From the NCBI GenBank assembly GCA_014323835.1, contig JACONH010000004.1, positions 12,500 to 76,499 of the forward strand: 64,000 nucleotides of DNA, written 5' to 3'. The translations under genes and the position numbers were made by a program. The notes under the pieces are model-generated. The model made no database searches. It was not told where the DNA came from and saw only the letters and a program-made list of their open reading frames with translations. The stretch is from Alphaproteobacteria bacterium GM202ARS2. Its GTDB lineage: Bacteria > Pseudomonadota > Alphaproteobacteria > GM7ARS4. The stretch's first letter is position 1. Each line of letters starts with the position of its first letter. This document shows, in pieces, positions 1-12,210 of the stretch.

Positions 1-945
1 GGACAAGGCGCGATTGTGGTGATGGGCTTGGACGGAGCAATTAAGGCGATGATTGGCGGACGTAACTATCGAGACAGCCAATTCAATCGAGTCAGCCAAG
101 CACAACGGCAACCGGGCTCTGCCTTTAAGTTGTTCGTTTATTTGGCAGCTTTAGAGGCGGGAGTCGGGGCAGAAACCAACGTACTCGATGGGCCGGTGGC
201 TTTGGAAGGATGGACGCCTAGTAATATCGATGGCACGTATCGAGGGGACGTCAATGTGCGGCAGGCTTTTTCTTTGTCGCTGAACACGCCGGCGGTGCGT
301 GTCAGCGAATACATCGGCAGAGACAAAGTCATCGATATGGCGCGCCGTTTAGGGATACAGACGCAGCTGGTGGCACACCCGTCGGTGGCTCTTGGGGCGG
401 TGAATGTTAATTTATTGGAGTTAACATCGGCTTATGGGGTTGTAGCGAATGGTGGCAAACGTTTTGCGCCGTGGGGTGTGGCGTTGGTGCGGTCGCGCAA
501 TGGCACGAAGGTTTACTATCGCAACCAGCAGGCAAAGACTCTACGTACCCTCGTTGCCAAGAAGCATAGCCAAGGGATGATTGATTTATTGAGGGATACG
601 GTGCGCCGGGGGAGCGGACAGGGGGCGAGTCTGTCTCGTGGCGTTGCGGGCAAGACTGGCACGAGTCAAAACTTTCGGGACGCATGGTTCATTGGCTTTA
701 CGACTGATTATATCGGGGGTATCTGGCTGGGCAACGATGACGAAGAAGCCATGCGTAACGTGACCGGGGGTAATCGGGCTGCACAGCTGTGGCGGACTGT
801 CATGCAAGAAGCGCATCAAGGCTTTCCGCCGCGCTTTTTTGCTGATAACGAGTCGCCCGCACGTATCTCGCGTGTGCCTGATGTCTCGCCATCCATGGGC
901 ACGAGAGGCCCCATAGGCACGCTCATGGAAAGATTGGGCTTATAG
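1..945 (+). CDS. Class A penicillin-binding protein (PBP1A family), C-terminal transpeptidase part; 5' end lies outside the window
   Basis: RQPGSAFK (SxxK), SLN (SxN), GKTGT and DAWFIG motifs; frame is open from base 1. Confidence 0.9.
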   Translation, partial: GQGAIVVMGLDGAIKAMIGGRNYRDSQFNRVSQAQRQPGSAFKLFVYLAALEAGVGAETNVLDGPVALEGWTPSNIDGTYRGDVNVRQAFSLSLNTPAVRVSEYIGRDKVIDMARRLGIQTQLVAHPSVALGAVNVNLLELTSAYGVVANGGKRFAPWGVALVRSRNGTKVYYRNQQAKTLRTLVAKKHSQGMIDLLRDTVRRGSGQGASLSRGVAGKTGTSQNFRDAWFIGFTTDYIGGIWLGNDDEEAMRNVTGGNRAAQLWRTVMQEAHQGFPPRFFADNESPARISRVPDVSPSMGTRGPIGTLMERLGL

Positions 946-954
946 GAGGGGTCG

Positions 955-1605
955 TTACAGAGCCCGCAGCGCGTCCCGTAGCTCGCTGACCGATACGTTG
1001 TAGGGAAAATAGTCGATGAATTGGCCGTTGGGTGCCATCAAATAGATGAAACTGCTGTGATTGATAAGATAGGATGGCTCTGTTTGGTGGTCGTGGTGCG
1101 CATGGTGGTCGGTGTGGTGGTGGTCATTTTGGGGTGTCTGTTTTTGTGCGTAGACTTTGAAGATGTGGTAGGCGTGTTGCAGTTGGCTCTGTGAGCCTGT
1201 GAGCATGACGATTTCGGGGGCGAATTGTTGGGCGTAGGCTTGCATGCGTTGGGGGGTGTCTCGTTTGGGGTCTGTGGTGATGAAGAGGGGGATGATGTTT
1301 TTGCGTTGGGGTGCGTCAAGGGCGTTGAGGGCGGCGGTGATGGAGGCAAGGGCGACGGGGCAGACATCGGGGCAGTGGGTGAAACCGAAAAAGACGAGGG
1401 CGTGCTGGTTGCCATAGTCGGCAAAGTGGCGGCGCTTGCCGTGTTGGTCTGTCAACGTGAAGGGCACACCGCCGATGAGGGCGGTTTGTTGGGCTGAGGG
1501 ATGGGGATGATTCTGGTGAGTCGTCAACAACGCCCAGCCGCTGAGGGCGGTGAGCATGAAGGCAGCAACAATGCCAGCGATAAGGTATGACTTGGGTTGT
1601 ATCAT
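955..1605 (-). CDS. SCO family copper chaperone (SCO1/SenC)
   Basis: FFGFTHCPDVCP (CxxxC), DPKRDT and YLINHSS motifs; N-terminal TM segment. Confidence 0.92.
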   Translation of the reverse strand: MIQPKSYLIAGIVAAFMLTALSGWALLTTHQNHPHPSAQQTALIGGVPFTLTDQHGKRRHFADYGNQHALVFFGFTHCPDVCPVALASITAALNALDAPQRKNIIPLFITTDPKRDTPQRMQAYAQQFAPEIVMLTGSQSQLQHAYHIFKVYAQKQTPQNDHHHTDHHAHHDHQTEPSYLINHSSFIYLMAPNGQFIDYFPYNVSVSELRDALRAL

Positions 1606-1621
1606 GGTGTGGGTATAAGCT

Positions 1622-2437
1622 TTAGCGTGTATTTTGTAAATAAGGTTTGATTTTTTTTCTTAAGCTGGCGTTGCCGCTGATAAGGATAATGGCGGGGGGT
1701 GTTATGGTTAGGTTGGTGCAGGCAGCTAGGGTTGTATCGGTGATGGTTTGTTGGGGCAGGCTGGCGTTGCTGATGATGGTAACAGGGTCGTCTTTTTTGT
1801 AGCCGTTTGTGAGGAGGTGTTGGGCGATGGTGGGTAGGTTGTGTGTCGCCATATAGAGGGCGATGGCGTTGGGGGGTGAGGGCAGGGAGGGCAAAGGGGA
1901 GGGTAAGTGGAGGGTTGTGTCGTGGCGTGTGCCGGTTAGGAACGTGATGGCGGCGTTTTCGTTGCGGTAGGTGAGGGGCAAGCCGGCGTTGGCGGCGGCG
2001 GCGGTTGCGGCGGTGATGCCGGGGATGATGCGCAAGGTAATGTGGGCGTTGGCGAGGGCGAGGGCTTCATCGCCGCCGCGGGCAAACAGCAGGGGGTCGC
2101 CGCCTTTGAGACGGGCCACACGTTTGTTGGTGCGGGCGTGCGCGATGATATGCTCGTTGATGGTGGACTGCGGCATCGAGGCAGAATCGTGGTGGCGTTT
2201 GCCCGTGCGGATAACTTGCGTTTTTTGGGGTATCAGCTTTAGGATAGCTGGGCTGACCAGCGCGTCATGGAGGATAACATCGGCATGAACGATGGCGTAT
2301 AGGGCTTGTATGGTGAGCAAGGTGGGGTCGCCGGGGCCCGTGCCGACCAGCCAGACCTCGCCTTGACGGAAGGGCGGTAGGGCAGCATCGGGGGCAAGGG
2401 GGAGATGGGCAAGCAAGTCGGCAGGAGATGATGGCAT
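1622..2437 (-). CDS. cobA: Uroporphyrinogen-III C-methyltransferase
   Basis: VWLVGTGPGDP, RLKGGDPLLFARGGDE and IPGITAA motifs. Confidence 0.92.
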   Translation of the reverse strand: MPSSPADLLAHLPLAPDAALPPFRQGEVWLVGTGPGDPTLLTIQALYAIVHADVILHDALVSPAILKLIPQKTQVIRTGKRHHDSASMPQSTINEHIIAHARTNKRVARLKGGDPLLFARGGDEALALANAHITLRIIPGITAATAAAANAGLPLTYRNENAAITFLTGTRHDTTLHLPSPLPSLPSPPNAIALYMATHNLPTIAQHLLTNGYKKDDPVTIISNASLPQQTITDTTLAACTNLTITPPAIILISGNASLRKKIKPYLQNTR

Positions 2438-2526
2438 AACGAAGGGGAAGAGTGGTGCAACAACAACGGCAATATAGAAAGCGGGGGCTTTTTGTTATAG
2501 ACGCAGTTCGCCCTTTGGTGCAAATC

Positions 2527-3069
2527 ATGCTGGTTGTGGCGATGATGCTGATGGGCGGGGCGCGAGTGGCTTGGGCAGGAGGCGACGGGGCGCGCTTCGA
2601 GGATCTCTTGTTTTGGAACGCTGTACGGGCAGGTAAAATGGCAGATATTGCTCGTATGGTCGAAAGCGGCGAGTCCCTGAATCGCTTGGACAGAAACGGC
2701 ATGACGCCCTTGTTGTATGCGGTGCAGCTGAAAAATGGCGAGATGCTGGCGTATATTCTCGCTAACGAAGTCAATATAGAGCAAGCGGGCCCGTCGGGGG
2801 ATACGGCACTGATCCATGCGGTGCGGCATGGCATGGTGGGCATGGTGGATATGCTCCTGCGGGCGGGAGCGGACATCAACAAGCAAGACCGCTATGGGGT
2901 GACTCCGTTGATGAAGGCGGTGGAACATGGCCACGCGGCGTTGGTGAAAAAACTGCTCATGGAGGGGGCATCGATGGCTATCACGGATTATACCGGGCGA
3001 GATGTCCTGTATTATGCCGACAACCAAAGAGACGGACGGATGCGCCGCTTGCTACGAGAACATCGTTAA
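2527..3069 (+). CDS. Ankyrin repeat protein with probable signal peptide (alternative start at 2452)
   Basis: Repeated GxTPL/GDTAL...A...G ankyrin motifs; hydrophobic N-terminus ending AWA. Confidence 0.85.
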   Translation: MLVVAMMLMGGARVAWAGGDGARFEDLLFWNAVRAGKMADIARMVESGESLNRLDRNGMTPLLYAVQLKNGEMLAYILANEVNIEQAGPSGDTALIHAVRHGMVGMVDMLLRAGADINKQDRYGVTPLMKAVEHGHAALVKKLLMEGASMAITDYTGRDVLYYADNQRDGRMRRLLREHR

Positions 3070-3087
3070 TTTTATATAGTTTATACA

Positions 3088-3207
3088 GTTGCAAATCGTT
3101 ATTATTCTGTTATAGGTTTTTATGGGGGGATGAATTGAGGAATTAACGTTGCAAATCGTTATTATTCTGTTATAGGTTTTTATGGGGGGATGAATTGAGG
3201 AATTAAC
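3088..3207 (+). repeat. Perfect tandem duplication of a 60-bp unit (3088-3147 and 3148-3207)
   Basis: gttgcaaatcgttattattctgttataggtttttatggggggatgaattgaggaattaac occurs twice and ends 1 bp before ATG 3209. Confidence 0.97.
3149..3200 (+). promoter_or_regulatory. Putative sigma70-type promoter plus RBS of the Hsp70 operon (present in both repeat copies)
   Basis: TTGCAA, 16-nt spacer, TATAGG preceded by an extended TGn, then GAGG upstream of ATG. Confidence 0.5.
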
Positions 3208-3208
3208 A

Positions 3209-4039
3209 ATGATGTTTGTGCATGGGGCTGTATGGCGAATTGTGTTGGTGGCGGTTGCGTCATTGTTGCTTATGGTGTTGGCTTATGTTGCCGTTTCGCA
3301 TGATTGGTTCGAGGGAGTTGGCAGTCGTATCGTTTTCGATAGCCGGACGATAGTCACGATTGCCAGCTTGCTCATAGCCTTTGTGTCTTTGGGATTATCC
3401 TTTTTCCTTTATCGGGGCAGGAGGGTTGCCTTCACTAAGGGGGAGCATGCCCTTATGCCTGAGGCATGGTTGCCAACGTTGCAGGACGTTAGTCGTGGTA
3501 TTCAGGGGCAGACAGATTTATTGAAAAAGCTTGCGCGCCATCTTATTGACACCTTTTCTGTTCAATCAAAAGAAATGAGCGATATTAAGGATATGCTTGG
3601 AAAATTTCGGCAAGCCTTGGATAAAAAAGATGAGGAGATAGAGCGTTACAAAAAAGGATACGACCAGCAAGTATTTGTTAAGTTTCTTAGGCGTTTTGCT
3701 AAACTACAAAAAGTGGTGGACGAATCTATCAAGGGTTTCGAGCAGGATTCGTCTCAAGCCAAAAAAGGCTTGGATAATATAAAAGAATTGCTCAGTTATG
3801 CTCTCGTAGAATGTGATGTTGTCGCTTTCAGTCCAAAAGTGGGCGAGGATTGGACAAAACTGGCAAAAGATGAGGTAGAAGATAACCCTGTAACTATTCC
3901 TACCAATGACCCTCAGCAAGACCAGATTATTGCTGAGGTGGTGTCAGTTGGATACAAGTTGGACAACACCGAAACGCCTGTGTTTATTGTGCCAGCTCGA
4001 GTCAAAATTTATGTTTATCAATCGGAGGAATCATCATGA
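3209..4039 (+). CDS. GrpE-like nucleotide exchange factor with two N-terminal TM helices
   Basis: Two hydrophobic helices, a coiled coil, then a GrpE-like head (FSPKVGED...IAEVVSVGYKL...VPARVKI); ATGA overlap with Hsp70. Confidence 0.75.
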   Translation: MMFVHGAVWRIVLVAVASLLLMVLAYVAVSHDWFEGVGSRIVFDSRTIVTIASLLIAFVSLGLSFFLYRGRRVAFTKGEHALMPEAWLPTLQDVSRGIQGQTDLLKKLARHLIDTFSVQSKEMSDIKDMLGKFRQALDKKDEEIERYKKGYDQQVFVKFLRRFAKLQKVVDESIKGFEQDSSQAKKGLDNIKELLSYALVECDVVAFSPKVGEDWTKLAKDEVEDNPVTIPTNDPQQDQIIAEVVSVGYKLDNTETPVFIVPARVKIYVYQSEESS

Positions 4040-5601
4040 GCGCATATATCGGTATCGACTTAGGCACAACATTTTCTGCCGCCGCCACCCTTGACGAGAC
4101 GGGTAGACTTGTCATGATTAAAAATCCTGATGAACAACGTAGTGATAATCTGCTTCCATCGGCTGTTTGGGTTGAGGGAGATGAATTGATTGTAGGAGAG
4201 GAGGCTAGAAAGAGACATCAAAATAAAAGCAGTGGTGGTGTTGCGAGCGGTGATGGAGCCGCAGGATTCAAGAAAGATATGGGGGATTCGAAAATGTATA
4301 AGCTCGCTGATAAAGCATATAGCCCTACCGACCTCAGTGCCGCGGTGCTGAAGAAATTAAAAATGATTGCTGAAAAACAAGTGGGGGATGTTGTTGAGGC
4401 TGTGGTAACCACTCCTGCTAACTTTTCTAATGAAGCTCGGGAAGAAACCATGGCGGCGGCACGTAAAGCGGGATTGAATAGTCGAAATATCAGCAATGAA
4501 CCGACGGCTGCTGCTTTGTATTATGCTGCGACAGAAGGGCAAAATATGCGCGGGACGTATGCGGTCTATGATTTGGGGGGTGGCACTTTCGATGTGTCGA
4601 TTATCCGTATTGATGGGGAAAATATCGAGGTGCTGGCTTCCAATGGCGTGAAAAAGTTAGGCGGCGATTATTTTGACGAGGCACTCATCGAATTGGTGGC
4701 TGATAAATTCAAACAAGAAACTGGCAGAGACATCAATCAAAATCCAGATAATTTAGATTATAGATTGAGTGATGCAGAAGCAGATAAAATTAGTCTCTCT
4801 AACCAACAGACCGTTCTTGCTGGAGGTGGGGAGTCGATAGACGGACATATCATTAAAGTTACAAGGAGTGCCTTAGAAGAAAAAATTTCTTCCTATATTG
4901 CCCAAACCGAGATGCTGTGTGAAAGCACTGTTGAAGACGCGGGCTTGACGATGTCCGATATTCAAGGGGTCTTGTTGGCAGGGGGAAGCACGCGGATGCC
5001 TTGGGTGTCTCGCAGTATTCAAAAGGTTTTTGGCAAGGAACCTATAGTCAAAGCCAATGTCGATGAAGTGGTGGCTTTGGGTGCAGCTTTTTATGTGGCT
5101 TATAAAAACTACGACAAATTAACGCCAACACAACAAGAATTTATTGATAGTGTCATAAAAAAAGGAGGAGTTCAAGAAAGGACGAGCAAGTATTATGGGA
5201 TAATATCTTTGGAGTATGATGAAGCACGTGAAACGGCAGTGTTGGTTAATAGCATTATTATTCATAAAGGGGAAAAGATTCCCTGCTCTCAAACAAAAAC
5301 TTTTTTCACAGTTACGGATGGACAAACGAGTGTTAATTGTAAAGTGACAGAATCGGATAGACCTGTGACTCATGTTGCTTCTGTCGACGACATCGTTGTT
5401 GCGAAAAAACTACTAGGTAACCTGCCACCGAATAGATCTTCTGGTCAGAAAATTGAAGTCACGTTCAGCTATGACGAAAACCAAACCATGCGTTATTCAT
5501 TTGTTGATATCGAAACAGGACTTGAAGTAGGAGGGAGTGTTCACCCCACCAAAGATTCCGGTGATTCGGCATCTGATCTTGGCAAAATTTTAGTGGATTA
5601 A
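4036..5601 (+). CDS. Hsp70/DnaK-family protein, short form (521 aa) without the C-terminal lid
   Basis: GIDLGTT, NEPTAAAL, YDLGGGTFDVS, GGSTRMP, DEVVALGAA motifs; beta-SBD segment (KIPCSQTKTFFTVTDGQT...IEVTFSYDEN). Confidence 0.93.
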   Translation: MSAYIGIDLGTTFSAAATLDETGRLVMIKNPDEQRSDNLLPSAVWVEGDELIVGEEARKRHQNKSSGGVASGDGAAGFKKDMGDSKMYKLADKAYSPTDLSAAVLKKLKMIAEKQVGDVVEAVVTTPANFSNEAREETMAAARKAGLNSRNISNEPTAAALYYAATEGQNMRGTYAVYDLGGGTFDVSIIRIDGENIEVLASNGVKKLGGDYFDEALIELVADKFKQETGRDINQNPDNLDYRLSDAEADKISLSNQQTVLAGGGESIDGHIIKVTRSALEEKISSYIAQTEMLCESTVEDAGLTMSDIQGVLLAGGSTRMPWVSRSIQKVFGKEPIVKANVDEVVALGAAFYVAYKNYDKLTPTQQEFIDSVIKKGGVQERTSKYYGIISLEYDEARETAVLVNSIIIHKGEKIPCSQTKTFFTVTDGQTSVNCKVTESDRPVTHVASVDDIVVAKKLLGNLPPNRSSGQKIEVTFSYDENQTMRYSFVDIETGLEVGGSVHPTKDSGDSASDLGKILVD

Positions 5602-5605
5602 GCTT

Positions 5606-6802
5606 GTGGAAATTCTTATCGTAGCAGCTCTTATTTGGTGGGTGCTTCATATTATTGGCAAAAAAGCGGACAAAATGAACACTGCTGATTCGCAACAGGA
5701 AGAGTCGCATTTACAGCAAACTCATTATCAGCAACCACAAAGAAGGCAGTCAAACGAATTACAAATTCGTATTATTGATAAGACAATTCCTGGCAGGAGA
5801 GCTGCGAGTGCCAAGATTATTGAGATGCGGGGGATGTTTCCGATAATCAAGCACACCAATTTGGGTGTGGTAACGTCTCTGTTGGATGTTACCGATTCGA
5901 CTGACCGTTCCCCTTTGTTTTCGTTCATTGATGATTTACAAGAAGAGAACAGCCATGCTTACCAACATAAAGGAGAAATTGGCAATATGGCTGTCGGTTA
6001 TGGCACTCGAGAGTGGGTTCATGTTGCACTGATTATCCCCGATATGTTGCAACCACCTTATGGTGGAACACGTCGGCTAGAGGTGCGGGTGCGTTTGATT
6101 GACCTCGACAACCCACCTATTATTAAGTTAGGTTTTTTGGTTGACGACAGAGGGGGTATCCTGTGGTCGAGAGCATTGCAATTCGAGCATACGTTCTCAA
6201 TAAAAGGCTATATAGAAAGTGCTGAAAATAGACATAAAGCACAAGCCCTTTCGATTCAAATCGCTATGGCGGTTGCCATGTCCGATGGTGAGCTGCACGA
6301 ATCCGAAGGCAAAGTTATTCACGATTGGGTTGTCAAAGCCATAAGCTCCTTCGAAGGCGATAGAAAAGAAGAACTCAAAAAAATCTATAACGAGGCAATG
6401 AAGACAGCCTATTCCAATCCGCAACCTCTCTTTGAATTGACAGAACAGCTGAATGAGATTGGTGAGAAGAAAACCAAATATGACGCGATAGAACTCAGCT
6501 ACGATGTTATGAGAGCAGATGGTAAAATGGCATCAGGAGAATTAAATATTTTAAGAAAAATCAGCGAGTCTCTGGACATTGACCCCAAAATACTAGAGGA
6601 GATTGAAGGTGAAAAACTCGTCAGAGTCGATGTTTCGCAGCTAGAAGATTATTGTGATAAATTCTTGGGAATTGACTCAAGCTGGGATAAAGAACGTATA
6701 AAAAATCACCTTAATTCTAAGTTTAGGGAATGGAACAATCGTCAAGGTGCACAGGGAATGCTCGACCTTATTGCTCAGTGTCGGAGAAAACATGGCTTAT
6801 GA
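5606..6802 (+). CDS. Membrane-anchored TerB-domain protein with C-terminal degenerate J-like domain (DjlA-like layout)
   Basis: N-terminal TM; paired TerB motifs AVAMSDGELHESE and VMRADGKMASGE; C-terminal FLGIDSSWDKERIKNHLNSKFREWNNR resembles J helices I-II but lacks HPD. Confidence 0.72.
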   Translation: MEILIVAALIWWVLHIIGKKADKMNTADSQQEESHLQQTHYQQPQRRQSNELQIRIIDKTIPGRRAASAKIIEMRGMFPIIKHTNLGVVTSLLDVTDSTDRSPLFSFIDDLQEENSHAYQHKGEIGNMAVGYGTREWVHVALIIPDMLQPPYGGTRRLEVRVRLIDLDNPPIIKLGFLVDDRGGILWSRALQFEHTFSIKGYIESAENRHKAQALSIQIAMAVAMSDGELHESEGKVIHDWVVKAISSFEGDRKEELKKIYNEAMKTAYSNPQPLFELTEQLNEIGEKKTKYDAIELSYDVMRADGKMASGELNILRKISESLDIDPKILEEIEGEKLVRVDVSQLEDYCDKFLGIDSSWDKERIKNHLNSKFREWNNRQGAQGMLDLIAQCRRKHGL

Positions 6803-7862
6803 CGCGGCACTTAAACAGGCAAGGGCGTATGCCGATGTTGTCCGTTACTCAAAAGATAAGGCAACGCATGGGCATATCGTCAGCAGACACCTTATCAAGA
6901 AACAGCAAGATATGCTTTTGCGTTCAAGTCTCTTGATGAGTGAAAGCTTAACGCCTGAGCTATCAAAGAAGTTTGACGAAGTCTGCGAAAAGCTGGGCGT
7001 GCCACGTGATGCTGTTAATGTTTTTATACAAGCCGACTCGACCATTCAGGCGGCGTGTCTCTATAGTTCATCGCATGAGTGTCTGATACAGTTCTCCTCA
7101 GGTCTGATTAACCTGTTAGATAGCGATGAATTTGGTTTTGTCGCTGGACATGAACTCGGGCACTTCTTACTCGAGCATGGTGCTGGTGATTTTCAGAAAG
7201 AATCTATTGAGTATTTTATCCAAAGCCGTGCCCAAGAAATATCTGTAGACCGTCTCGGTCTTATTGCTACAGGCAATCTTGATGCTTCGATGAGTGCTCT
7301 CGTCAAAGCCGCGTCAGGGCTAGAAAATCGTCACTTGCGGTTCGATGTTGGAGCGTTTATCTCGCAGGCAAAAAAGATTTCCCAACCACAAAGAGGAGAA
7401 GGATTTGCCAGCACCCATCCTTCCATATTGACACGATGTCGAGCCTTGTTGTGGTTCTCAACGGATACGACCTATAAAGACTACCCCGTGACCAAACAAT
7501 CACCCGAACTCACAAAACTGAACGCAACAATAGAAAAAGAGCTGAATAAATTTGTCGAGGGACCCATACGAGAAGAAATAAACACAGTCAAAAAAGAAAT
7601 CGCTTTGTGGCTTGCCGCGTCTATCATTATTAAAGATGGCAGATTCGATAAAGACGAGCAACAAAAGATAAAAAATCTATTCGGTGATGTTATCCTCGAT
7701 AAATTAAAACGGTTCTTGTCCGACTCTAACAAGGATACGCTGTCTCATGATATAGCCAACAAGCTTGCTTATAGTAAAAAGAAGCTAGAGCACATGATGC
7801 CGGTCAATTTCGAAAAACTTTATAGCGAGGTAGAGAAATTTATCGCTGAAAAATTGGCATAA
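6792..7862 (+). CDS. M48-family zinc metallopeptidase with possible TerB-like C-terminus
   Basis: FVAGHELGH (HExxH), RAQEISVDR (third ligand Glu) and STHP motifs; GGAG RBS before ATG 6792; overlaps the upstream stop. Confidence 0.85.
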   Translation: MAYDAALKQARAYADVVRYSKDKATHGHIVSRHLIKKQQDMLLRSSLLMSESLTPELSKKFDEVCEKLGVPRDAVNVFIQADSTIQAACLYSSSHECLIQFSSGLINLLDSDEFGFVAGHELGHFLLEHGAGDFQKESIEYFIQSRAQEISVDRLGLIATGNLDASMSALVKAASGLENRHLRFDVGAFISQAKKISQPQRGEGFASTHPSILTRCRALLWFSTDTTYKDYPVTKQSPELTKLNATIEKELNKFVEGPIREEINTVKKEIALWLAASIIIKDGRFDKDEQQKIKNLFGDVILDKLKRFLSDSNKDTLSHDIANKLAYSKKKLEHMMPVNFEKLYSEVEKFIAEKLA

Positions 7863-7976
7863 CAGAGCTTACAATCGGTGGTGTGGCATATTCGTATTGA
7901 AAGATTGCAAAATGGTCAATTGATGTGTTACGACTATAGGCGTGGGGATTGAGAGAGACGATGAGGGGTAAGAGAA

Positions 7977-8186
7977 ATGGTGCAAAAAAAGCCTGAGGAC
8001 ATGACTCTTGAGGAGCTTATCGAGCATCAAAAGAGTCACAAAGTAGGAGAGAAGGAGCTTATCGACCAAGCCATGTCTATTGCCTTGACGGAAGATAGGC
8101 GTCATGGTGGTGATACGTCCTTAGAAGAAATGGAGCGTATAGCGAAAAAAGATAGGGTCACTGGATGTATTAAAAATATATTATAA
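7977..8186 (+). CDS. Small hypothetical protein (69 aa)
   Basis: ATG with a purine-rich RBS (gaggggtaagag); charged helical composition; no recognised family. Confidence 0.5.
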   Translation: MVQKKPEDMTLEELIEHQKSHKVGEKELIDQAMSIALTEDRRHGGDTSLEEMERIAKKDRVTGCIKNIL

Positions 8187-8212
8187 GTATGTTAAATATA
8201 TATTATAGAAAT

Positions 8213-8228
8213 TGTTTCACGTGAAACA
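8213..8228. promoter_or_regulatory. parS centromere-like site (perfect consensus)
   Basis: TGTTTCACGTGAAACA; the palindrome extends to 24 bp (8209-8232). Confidence 0.88.
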
Positions 8229-8310
8229 ATTTTTTTTTTGATAGGGAATAAGCAAAAAACTAGGCTCACTGCCCCCTTCACCCAACGTGTTAAAAACGTG
8301 TTATAGGAAT

Positions 8311-8326
8311 TGTTTCACGAGAAACA
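8311..8326. promoter_or_regulatory. Second parS site (1 mismatch)
   Basis: TGTTTCACGAGAAACA with flanks similar to the first site (tatag.aat / att). Confidence 0.82.
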
Positions 8327-8422
8327 ATTGGGGTGAGTCATGCGTAAAAATAAGTATACTTTAAGTATTCATTCGTGTAAAGTTCACAGCAAGGGCGAAC
8401 ACCACACACACGGAGAAAAGCC

Positions 8423-8572
8423 ATGGGTATGCAAAAATCAATTGCCGCATTCTTAACAACAGGAGCAGGTGCCGCAGCATACTTCGGTTGGGGAGTCCCT
8501 CCCGAATACACAACCGCCGCGGTAACCTTAGCGAGCACCTTGCTCGTCTATCTTGTGCCGAATAAAGGGTAA
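8423..8572 (+). CDS. 49-aa two-TM membrane microprotein A (holin-like)
   Basis: Manual translation MGMQKSIAAFLTTGAGAAAYFGWGVPPEYTTAAVTLASTLLVYLVPNKG; GGAG RBS at 8412-8415; paralog follows immediately. Confidence 0.8.
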   Translation: MGMQKSIAAFLTTGAGAAAYFGWGVPPEYTTAAVTLASTLLVYLVPNKG

Positions 8573-8577
8573 TCGTC

Positions 8578-8727
8578 ATGGGTATTCAAAAACTTATCGC
8601 TAGCGTTATACCCATGATAGCCGCCTTCTTGGCTGCGTATAACATTGAATTATCAGCAGAACAGCTGGCTCTTATTCAGGGTGTTCTGACCTCTATCGCT
8701 GTCTATTACGTCCCCAACAAGGCTTGA
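8578..8727 (+). CDS. 49-aa two-TM membrane microprotein B (paralog of A)
   Basis: Manual translation MGIQKLIASVIPMIAAFLAAYNIELSAEQLALIQGVLTSIAVYYVPNKA; shares MGxQKxIA and VYxVPNK with A. Confidence 0.8.
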   Translation: MGIQKLIASVIPMIAAFLAAYNIELSAEQLALIQGVLTSIAVYYVPNKA

Positions 8728-8728
8728 A

Positions 8729-10648
8729 TTAAAGACTGAATTGCTTTATTTCTTGTTTGCTGGTGTGCGGATTAGGTGTCGTCTGCCAAGAGATATCAAA
8801 CAGGTTCGCCAGTTGGTGCGTCAACACGGGCCCCAGAGCATCCGCATCGCTAATCGTAACCGCATTGTGATAGTAGCGTGAGACATCATGGCCAATGCCG
8901 ATAGCCATCAGTTCGATGGCTTGTTGGTTTTCGATAGTAGCGACAACCGAATTCAAGTGGTCTTCCAGGATGCTTTCTTTATTGGCAGAGAACGTTGAAT
9001 CGTCCACCGGTGCACCGTCCGAGATAACAATCAGGATGCGTCGGGTTTCGTGGCGTTGTTGCAGGCGTTGGTAAGCCCACAGCAGGGCTTCGCCGTCGAT
9101 GTTTTCTTTCAGCAAGCCCTCTCGGAGCATAAGCCCCAGGTGATTGCGTGCCCGCCGCCACGGCGTGTTCGCGCTTTTATAGATGATATGGTGCAAGTCA
9201 TTCAGCCGTCCCGGGTGAGCGGGCTGTTTCTGCTGCAGCCACAGTTCTCGAGCGCGCCCCCCCTTCCACGTGACCGTGGTGAAGCCGAGAATCTCCACTT
9301 TAATTGCACAGCGTTCCAAAGTGCGAGCAAGAATATCGGCACAGCTGGCAGCAATGGCGATAGGCTTGCCCCGCATCGAGCCCGAATTATCGATAAGCAA
9401 CGTAACAATCGTATCCTTGAAGGGATGTGTGCACTCGGTTTTCCATATCGCTGGCGTTGTCGGGTTAGCAATCAGGCGTGCCAGCTTGCCACCATCGAGA
9501 AGCCCTTGCTCTTGGTCGAATTCCCACCATCTCTTTTGTTTTGCCATCAGTTTTCTTTGTAGAATTTTGGCAAGGCGCGCAACGATGTCGTCATACTGGC
9601 GCGTGCGGTTGTCCAGCTTACGGCGCAAGTCCGCCAACTCGTGCGGCGGACACAACGCCGTCGCATGATTAATCTGGTCATAGGCTTGCGTAAAAATGCG
9701 ATAGCGTTTCTTCGGCTTGGGCGGCTCACTGCGGGCAAGAGACAAGGGCGATGTGCCCTCGTCATGGTCGTTGTCGTCCTCAGGGGCAGGCGGCGTTTCG
9801 TCCGTTGACGGCGGCGGGTGTCGACCGCTTTCCTGTGGCTGTTGCTGCGGCGATGGAGTCGGATTCGGCGGCGGCGCACGACTCTCTTGCTTGTCAGGCA
9901 AGGCAGCCTCCTCCTGCTCCTGCGGAGTCGGCTCCTGTTGCGGCGGCGACTCGTCTTGGGCAAAAAGAGACTCAATCAACGCACGAGCACGCTCGCCATA
10001 AACAGCCTGATTGTCACAGGATCGAGCCAACCCCTGTAACTGCTGGCACAACGACTCGCTCAACTGGTCACGCCAACGGCGGTCATTCTTGCGACACCAA
10101 TGCTGGACGGACGGACTCAGGTGGCTTGACTGTTGCCGCAACGTCCCACGCAGAGCCATCTCTAAGTCATCCTCCTGTTCTTTGGTGCTGGCGTCATGGA
10201 GCCACGCCGTATCAAGGTTGACCGCAAGCCCCTTGAGATATCTACCGCGCAGGGCGATGCGTTCTTCTTCCAGAGCATCAAAAAGCTGCGCCGCTTGCGC
10301 ATGCTCGGGGCGATGCTGCTGGTGCGTGCGGGAACAATGCCACTTTTTAACCAGAGCATGATAGTCGCTCTGTCCCCGCAAAACACCCTGTTGCTGCGAC
10401 CGACGCGCCGGGCTCACCAACGTCAACGACGTGCGAGTCGCCGCTTGTAAGGAATCAGAATCGGAAGGGCCCGGGGGGCTAGGAGGGCTGGGGGGGGCCG
10501 GGGGGCTAGGAGGGGCATCGTCACGAATAGTCAGCTGGACATCCCAGCGACTGTTGCCGCTGAGGGCACGCATGGTCGCGGCAAGGGGTTGTTCCTTACC
10601 GCCAACATGGGACAACACTTCAGGTTTGCGTGTCGTGCCTTTAGCCAT
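8729..10648 (-). CDS. cobT: Cobaltochelatase subunit CobT (vWA domain)
   Basis: [33 protein letters not shown] and [11 protein letters not shown] motifs; downstream of cobS. Confidence 0.93.
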
Positions 10649-10652
10649 GCCT

Positions 10653-11666
10653 TTAGCCGTGTTTTGTTAAAGGCTCTGCCGATGGCGCGCTGACAGACTC
10701 GGTTGTGCGGGGCAACACATCCACATTGAAGCAACGCTGATAGTATTCGGCAACCGTGAACTTTTCGCCTTCATCACAGCGATTAAGAAAACTCAGGCAA
10801 AAAGCCAGCTCTCTATCGTGGAAAATCGCTATATTCTGGAGCCACGTTATCAGCGTGCGCGGCGACATAACAGTGGAAATATCGCCAGATTGCAAGCCCT
10901 TACGAGTCATGTTTGCCATAGCAATCATGGCTTTCAGCAACTCTTGTCCTTTCGGGTTGTCGTGTTCGGGGACTTTTGCCGTCAAAATACGTAGCTCTTG
11001 TTCGGGCTCGAGATAATTCAGAGCAGTGACAATATGCCACCTATCCATTTGTCCTTGATTAATTTGCTGTGTGCCGTGATACAGTCCGCTGGTGTCGCCC
11101 AAGCCGATGGTGTTGGTGGTAGCAAAAAGACGAAAGTAGGGGTTAGGCGTAATCACTTGATTTTGGTCGAGAAGGGTGAGTTTGCCGTCACTTTCGAGGA
11201 CTCGTTGAATAACGAACATGACGTCGGCTCTACCGGCATCGTATTCATCGAAGACGAGGGCGATAGGACGTTGCAGAGCCCACGTGAGCACGCCGGGCTG
11301 AAACTCGGTGATTTGTTTGCCGTCTTTTAGAACGATGCCGTCTTTGCCGATGAGGTCGATACGGCTTATGTGACTATCGAGATTGACTCGAATACAGGGC
11401 CAGTTGAGTTGGGCGGCGACTTGCTCGATGTGCGTGGATTTGCCGGTGCCGTGGTGCCCTTGCACCATGACTCGTTGATTGTGGGCGAAGCCCGCAAGAA
11501 TCGCCAGAGTCGTCTGCGGGTCAAAGCAATAGCGCGGATCAACTGCGGGCGTATGGTCGTGGGGCTGCGAAAAACAGGGGCTCGACAAATCGTGGTCGAT
11601 GCCAAACAGCTTGCGCGCTGTCGCCTGCGAGTCAGGCTTGTGGTCAGGATTGAGCGGAATCTGCAT
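10653..11666 (-). CDS. cobS: Cobaltochelatase subunit CobS (AAA+ ATPase)
   Basis: [27 protein letters not shown] and [17 protein letters not shown] motifs. Confidence 0.96.
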
Positions 11667-12210
11667 GCTTGAATTCCTCGGGCTTGAGATGTTTCTTGAG
11701 GTGCCAATAGGCTTCGTTGACGGCACGTAACATACTTTCGCCATCAGTGTTGCCACCACGAGCATCAGGGTGGTAACGCTTAACCAGACTATGATAGCGT
11801 TTCTTCAGGGCAGCAAGGGTTACGGGCTCTTGCAACTGCAGAAGAGACAGCGCGCGTCTGGTCTCCTCGCTATGAACCGGTGGGGATGCCCCGCCGTGCG
11901 ACTCGCTGCCCTTATAAAAGATAGAGAACAACAGATGCCGATGCAAAGGATGAAAACCATGCCGCCACGTGGGGCGATGGCCAACCCGGTCTCTGCGACG
12001 GTAACGCTCGATATCGCTTGAACTCATAGAAGCAAAAAAATTCCAGTTCTTATTGTATTGTCGCACATGCTCGAGACACAGATGATAGTGCCCCTGCTCG
12101 GGCGGATGCTTCGGCGCCAGATACGTGCCATACTGCGTGCACCCGTCATGGTCACATAAGGGGGGCGTGGGGGGCGTGCTGTTACCGTTATGCCCTTTGT
12201 ATCGTGTCAT
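11644..12210 (-). CDS. J-domain protein of the alphaproteobacterial cobS-linked type
   Basis: N-terminal C..C...CLEHVRQYNKNWNFF; C-terminal J domain with intact YHPD. Confidence 0.88.
   Translation of the reverse strand: MTRYKGHNGNSTPPTPPLCDHDGCTQYGTYLAPKHPPEQGHYHLCLEHVRQYNKNWNFFASMSSSDIERYRRRDRVGHRPTWRHGFHPLHRHLLFSIFYKGSESHGGASPPVHSEETRRALSLLQLQEPVTLAALKKRYHSLVKRYHPDARGGNTDGESMLRAVNEAYWHLKKHLKPEEFKHADSAQS

Follow-up and report, generated by a model that had tools for sequence, protein, structure and literature searches.

The stretch of DNA analysed here (the window, 64,000 nucleotides of the alphaproteobacterial genome labelled G000, whose contigs include C1, C5, C9, and C19) contains two tandem genes for predicted membrane microproteins that recall phage lysis proteins and lie apart from any endolysin gene. 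This raises the question of where such genes originate and what use a host could make of them.

Two microprotein genes at the end of a low-GC insertion

ORF1 (8423–8572) and ORF2 (8578–8727), both on the forward strand, encode 49 amino acids each, and 5 bp separate the stop of the former from the start of the latter. They begin with MGMQKSIA and MGIQKLIA and end with VYLVPNKG and VYYVPNKA, respectively. An ungapped comparison yields 15 identical residues out of 49 (31%) and a BLOSUM62 score of 56, which was equalled by none of 20,000 shuffles; default BLASTP of one protein against the other returned no alignment. At the nucleotide level, identity amounts to 23, 27, and 14 of 50 at the first, second, and third codon positions, and different codons are used at 8 of the 14 identical non-methionine residues. 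Saturated third positions combined with conserved residues point to selection acting on the protein. A Shine-Dalgarno-like GGAG (8412–8415, forward strand), read from the sequence, lies 7 nt 5′ of Met1 and 13 nt 5′ of Met3 of ORF1. A second such word, the likewise sequence-read AAGGG (8565–8569, forward strand), is embedded in the last codons of ORF1, 8 nt 5′ of ORF2, where it might permit translational coupling of the two frames. An earlier note on this DNA had described two closely spaced 49-residue frames with ribosome binding site-like words, a common MGxQKxIA start and VYxVPNK tail, and protein-level selection despite diverged DNA, and all of this is borne out by coordinates, sequence, and the comparisons above.

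The dual start proposed for the Met-Gly-Met of ORF1 has fared less well. In the λ S107 and S21-71 antiholins, according to the available text of PMC9636201, the longer start adds a positive residue. The double Met of ORF1 adds no positive charge, among 13 close relatives 8 have Met and 5 have Ile at the third residue, and the ribosome binding site spacing favours Met1 over Met3. Promoter-like sites near the pair occur at chance level (2 observed versus 2.2 expected). The two proteins are homologous, and their origin by tandem duplication is plausible: the sister pairing implied by the earlier term tandem paralogs was recovered in 0% of 200 bootstrap trees and is compatible with the data in the AU test (p 0.22), the resolution of the family tree being low (57 columns; 36 of its 57 inner branches unsettled). 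A profile search of G000 found no third family copy.

The pair forms the terminal part of a low-GC segment (about 3100–8730; GC 43% versus 56–57% on either side) located between an ankyrin gene and the convergent cobT, whose stop and that of ORF2 are 1 bp apart. Since the ankyrin gene adjoins cobT in G001 (97% complete), which is the one further genome of this family, the segment is regarded as an insertion. Besides the pair, it carries a 276-aa ORF and genes for an Hsp70, a TerB-domain protein, an M48 peptidase, and a 69-aa protein. The neighbours of the pair are the M48 peptidase gene, the 69-aa ORF, and cobT. The statement that no endolysin or phage gene is nearby holds at this locus but not for the genome, whose contigs C9 and C5 bear a prophage and a T7-like cluster, respectively. 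In the window, no porin or lipoprotein gene adjoins the pair, and profile searches of G001 and G003 found no match to its family.

Several features of the island were recorded along the way. Its operon (3209–7862) encodes a membrane-anchored 276-aa protein, GrpE-like by eye, a short Hsp70, the TerB-domain protein, and the M48 peptidase; the Hsp70-TerB-M48 operon is also present in G001 at another site (L129:8856–11757), where groEL follows. The 69-aa ORF (7977–8186) is acidic, lies between the M48 gene and two parS-like sites, and has no family match. A 59-bp exact tandem duplication including a ribosome binding site (about 3091–3208) occupies the left edge of the island. PADLOC matched none of seven proteins (ORF1, ORF2, and five island proteins).

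An unnamed family of phage lysis-cassette proteins

A single-sequence homolog search returned the window's own ORF1 as its sole match, tblastn of both ORFs and of protein P0095 against 50,697 annotated phage records gave none, ORF2 matched no viral contig, PDB sequences contained no solved relative, and NCBIfam held no meaningful match. Pfam likewise yielded no significant match for either protein, Phage_holin_9, Phage_holin_10, and DUF7439 being absent even at E ≤ 1. Among PHROGs, ORF1 weakly matched 17495 (‘membrane protein’, E 2.5e-4) and ORF2 weakly matched 9752 (‘holin’, E 7e-4). In the ESM Atlas, both ORFs lie next to the same unnamed clusters of 51–53 aa (feature scores 0.90–0.91), and feature scores of 0.86–0.90 link them to DUF7439, Phage_holin_9, and Phage_holin_10 as leads only.

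G002, a genome of the same order, provided three homologs, and a profile built from five rows then proved more productive. Among 1.84 billion entries, it recovered 225 cluster representatives at E ≤ 1e-3. The family profile matches ORF1 at E 9e-19 and ORF2 at E 2e-15. Among the best 150 of the 225 representatives, 125 measure at most 70 aa and 133 bear a VYxVPN-type motif, so that homologs conserving the motif do exist. The common pattern is K-A-I ... G ... V-Y-x-V-P-N; across 105 aligned members, K5 and N47 never vary, V42 and P46 hardly vary, and helix 1 closes with a Gly in 85. The only Pfam model to recur among these 105 is DUF7439 (7 members, best E 1.4e-4), and family proteins do not reach the gathering thresholds of DUF7439, Phage_holin_9, or Phage_holin_10. 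PHROGs 17495, 5807 (unknown), and 9752 match 19, 14, and 14 of the 105 at E ≤ 1e-3, a weak likeness. The family has no Pfam model and no name, and within the literature within reach, which mostly leaves out subscription journals, no account of it or of such orphan copies was found.

AlphaFold2 models ORF2 as a two-helix hairpin (helices 3–20 and 27–44; pLDDT 77, pTM 0.47). Of the 105 members, 99% have a loop with net acidic charge, 75% a net basic N-terminal part, and 67% a net basic C-terminal part. By the positive-inside rule, the net-basic ends of a membrane hairpin are cytoplasmic. The family is accordingly predicted to adopt an N-in/C-in topology with two helices and a short acidic loop outside. 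Four natural fusions, in which the VPN motif runs straight into a lipoprotein signal peptide, agree with a cytoplasmic C-terminus. Four others consist of two hairpins in one chain, suggesting that the unit may self-associate. The two hydrophobic helices described for both proteins are supported, as a prediction, by the model of ORF2, the charge pattern, and the fusions to lipoprotein signal peptides, with the reservation that the Gly/Ala-rich first helix of ORF1 is weak (best 17-residue Kyte–Doolittle mean 1.18 versus 1.91 in ORF2; 1.59 for the second helices).

The genomic surroundings of viral family members are informative about their role. With a sub-clade alignment, 66 viral loci were retrieved, of which 20 collapsed as duplicates; 38 of the 46 distinct loci were scanned for neighbours, six near-copies (L045, L046, L047, L057, L065, L071) and two loci with no neighbour ORF of 90–700 aa (L039, L041) being left out. 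An endolysin-type gene lies near the family gene in 31 of these 38 loci and is missing from 7, counts that come without a random-gene baseline and reflect the patterns of one sub-clade, close kin included, rather than independent cases. In 29 loci it was detected by Pfam within three same-strand ORFs (26 catalytic, 3 peptidoglycan-binding only), and 2 further loci were added by BLASTP to those enzymes. The neighbours belong to ten unrelated families (Hydrolase_2, M15_3, M15_4, Amidase_2, Amidase_3, GH19, GH24, GH25, GH108, and CHAP), and the gap to the endolysin-type gene is at most 100 bp in 20 of 31 loci (median 19 bp). The same neighbourhood is found in 5 of 6 loci on genome contigs and in a prophage of G082. 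The family is thus a lysis-cassette membrane protein of phages, which substantiates the kinship, proposed in the earlier note, to small two-TM phage proteins ending in VYxVPN. Because the closest relatives sharing the MG-x-QK start include the phage-context genes L121, L122, and L123, a phage is the likely source of the pair, whose ancestry in phage lysis cassettes we regard as very probable. A side observation concerns a Mu-like phage (L021:3743–4186), where the family member has an Acb2/Tad1-domain gene before it and a probable lipoprotein gene after it, with no endolysin gene seen beside it.

The presence of an endolysin-type gene in 31 of 38 scanned phage loci upholds the holin-like lead at the level of the family. 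A pore role is not established by cassette position, since most cassettes hold other membrane genes: crude hydropathy calls predict another TM ORF within 700 bp in 26 of the 31 endolysin-linked cassettes, and a one-TM gene starts within 60 bp downstream of the family gene in 25 of 45 loci. A pore, a LysF1a-like regulator, and a spanin partner are all candidate roles. Class II holins, exemplified by the S21-68 pinholin, possess two TM helices in an N-in/C-in arrangement (PMC9636201, in its available text), which the family resembles in its predicted topology and in the endolysin beside its phage members. In contrast to class II holins, the pair is smaller, lacks a Pfam holin match above cut-off and an adjacent endolysin, and is a putative pore; in most of its cassettes, moreover, the family is not the sole membrane-protein candidate. 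LysF1a is described in the accessible part of PMC13056207 as a two-TM, N-in/C-in mycobacteriophage lysis protein that is an inefficient trigger alone and needs the one-TM LysF1b. The family is comparable, by description, as a predicted two-TM N-in/C-in cassette protein with predicted one-TM partner genes; LysF1a differs in its 88 aa and its Gram-positive hosts, and the pair has no one-TM partner beside it.

Host copies without an endolysin

The family profile matches 8 of 401 genomes of the class. G002, assembled in one contig, harbors three diverged copies in its 16S–23S spacer on the rRNA strand, and these form one clade (support 95/85). The 4.2-kb spacer (L006:6621–10830; G002:C1 about 682600–686800) contains a coiled-coil ORF, a lipoprotein gene, the three family members, and genes for TraT, DUF1761, and Bor, with tRNA-Ile and tRNA-Ala interleaved. 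Genes so placed may be translated poorly; the literature offered nothing useful on protein genes in rRNA spacers. In f120, another alphaproteobacterial family, 5 of 5 genomes carry one copy, each behind a porin gene (assigned by Pfam for two and by a porin profile for three) at a distance of 83–157 bp in four of them, and the family gene is found in 0 of 3 other genomes of the order to which f120 belongs. Between the copies of G276 and G120, 44, 46, and 30 of 53 nucleotides are identical at the three codon positions, which indicates purifying selection.

Endolysins were sought in host genomes through four phage families, of which PF05838 was uninformative, its profile having matched no control genome. 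For phage lysozyme, M15_4, and Hydrolase_2, the searches of G002, G276, G391, and G120 came back empty, and G002 gave no match to PF00959, PF13539, or PF07486. Endolysin-free retention recurs in three alphaproteobacterial lineages. Other phage-derived membrane proteins reside on host chromosomes, namely TcdE and type 10 secretion, which in the portion of PMC9527704 available are domesticated holins with a linked endolysin, remnant, or cargo, and RcGTA rcc00555–00556. The pair differs from all of these in having no linked hydrolase or cargo, and its homologs adjoin porin, lipoprotein, and rRNA genes.

Other phage-related elements of these genomes were mapped as well. On C9 of G000, a P22-like prophage (about 8000–49500; L118–L120) encodes an M15 endolysin with a hydrophobic C-terminal extension, small membrane ORFs beside this endolysin, and a lysozyme-domain protein of 871 aa. 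The T7-like head-tail cluster on C5 (about 770–12200; L116) is compact; it includes an S24 repressor as well as a GTA_holin_3TM gene and has no adjacent endolysin. Its connector occurs in G001 and G003 too, which makes this cluster a GTA candidate. C19 (L117) resembles a plasmid and encodes ParA, RepA, a VapE-domain protein, and a terminase. In G002, an isolated terminase and a Mu-type portal are located amid housekeeping genes with no capsid gene beside them (L112:9377–12075), and RcGTA-like head-tail clusters are kept in the 1.6–1.8 Mb genomes G276, G120, and G391 (L113, L114, and L115, respectively).

Possible uses of the pair

The explanation we favour, tentatively and at a little under an even chance, is that the pair, which has no endolysin beside it, is kept by the host in the form of inner-membrane hairpins that do not kill and that adjust the permeability or integrity of the envelope. 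A phage cassette gene would have been captured by the host, and its descendants would be made as small inner-membrane hairpins that associate with themselves or each other into oligomers, as the existence of natural double-hairpin fusions suggests. Expression would have to proceed without killing, in keeping with the location of homologs in sense orientation within an rRNA operon and immediately after porin genes; the effect may be a weak, LysF1a-like membrane perturbation rather than a lethal hole of the λ S type. A non-lethal role is suggested because genomes of 1.5–1.8 Mb would have difficulty retaining a lethal holin in the sense orientation of an rRNA operon or downstream of a porin gene. 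Against domestication, the pair lies in a lineage-specific low-GC insertion and was not detected in G001 or G003, a pattern that recent cargo would explain equally well. The repeated endolysin-free retention in such small genomes points to a host use beyond the secretion and GTA cases, a function deduced from context. It is conceivable, if rather doubtful, that several streamlined alphaproteobacteria each domesticated an unnamed minimal phage lysis protein on their own, multiplied its gene, and put it under the control of strong promoters, those of the rRNA operon and of porin genes, where it would act with no endolysin as a new class of small envelope-modulating membrane protein or as a decoy that upsets the lysis clock of incoming phages. 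Whatever the use, a widespread and unmodelled family of about 50 aa is now defined and a gap in many phage lysis cassettes is filled. Its members are among the smallest two-helix scaffolds on which the minimal needs of a holin-type protein can be addressed, and they are short enough for direct testing in E. coli or Caulobacter.

An anti-phage function is unlikely by comparison. Host copies would act as decoys that mix with the same-family lysis proteins of an infecting phage and mistime lysis, either by early abort or by block, and divergent copies would cover phage variants. The copies are indeed multiple and divergent (31% identity here, three diverged copies in G002), the phage-context genes L121–L123 are among the closest MGxQK-start relatives, and the pair resides in an AT-rich island of a genome with a PF11351 match at C1:49705. 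In contrast, PADLOC recognized neither the pair nor the five island proteins, no defence genes are neighbours in G002, and f120 retains a single copy, conserved and always linked to a porin gene, as would not be expected of a defence gene with rapid turnover.

It seems improbable that the microproteins provide a resident prophage or GTA with lysis functions in trans, from a separate locus, although there is precedent for such an arrangement: RcGTA rcc00555–00556 is a holin-endolysin locus outside the structural cluster (PMC5026251, in the text available), and the accessible text on a Caulobacter GTA reports no canonical holin-endolysin found (PMC13236601). A terminase is present in 5 of 5 host genomes tested, an RcGTA-like cluster was recognized by Pfam in G276 with similar gene runs in G120 and G391, such a cluster and the microprotein co-occur in the three f120 genomes examined, and G000 offers both the C5 cluster and the C9 prophage. 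On the other hand, the C5 cluster has its own GTA_holin_3TM gene and occurs in G000, G001, and G003 but not in G002, so that its distribution in this order of four genomes is not tracked by the microproteins, which occur in G000 and G002. Furthermore, small membrane ORFs accompany the endolysin of the C9 prophage, G002 shows just the terminase and the Mu-type portal at its locus, and searches of three f120 genomes for the chosen endolysin families yielded none. Lysis in trans has its best chance in f120.

The pair is also rather improbably idle phage cargo, recently acquired with the AT-rich island and showing protein-level selection that stems from its phage past. The island is absent from this site in G001, neither G001 nor G003 yielded a family member, the distribution of the family is patchy (the 8 of 401 genomes), and the two copies are as distant from each other as from other members. 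Idle cargo is difficult to reconcile with both frames and their ribosome binding site-like words being intact in a 1.8-Mb genome, with no other phage gene having come along, and with the triplication particular to the G002 lineage and the retention of the gene throughout f120. Least likely of all, and very improbable, is the earlier suggestion of a toxin-immunity pair, or of clients or effectors of the Hsp70-TerB-M48 operon, for which the adjacency of that operon on the same strand of the same island and the less hydrophobic first helix of ORF1 relative to that of ORF2 could be adduced: the two-gene architecture is not conserved (single copies in 5 of 5 f120 genomes and, with one hit in 45 of 46 and a spurious second hit in L067, in viral loci; three copies in G002), G001 has the operon and no family gene in the 17 kb around it, the TerB-domain protein was not found with this query in the family-bearing G002, G276, and G391, and operon and pair are separated by 560 bp containing the 69-aa ORF, a hairpin with a T run, and two parS sites. 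An obligate heterodimer is likewise unlikely in view of the single copies elsewhere.

The two parS sites are palindromes that we take to be parS by consensus motif. The first (8213–8228), a perfect match to the consensus, is followed by a T run and could, as RNA, also form a terminator-like hairpin (−10.1 kcal/mol) for the upstream operon; the second (8311–8326) has one mismatch. Two matches upstream of the pair compare with 0.05 expected. Genome-wide, G000 contains 156 parS-consensus palindromes in 49 clusters on 20 contigs, as opposed to 3, 2, and 6 in the other genomes of the order and 0 in G276, together with a single ParB match. Most of them lie outside long ORFs (25 of 156 inside, at an ORF coverage of 86%). 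According to the available text of a review, most parS sites are found in the origin domain (PMC7022226). The abundance of such sites in G000 is possibly more surprising than the microprotein finding.
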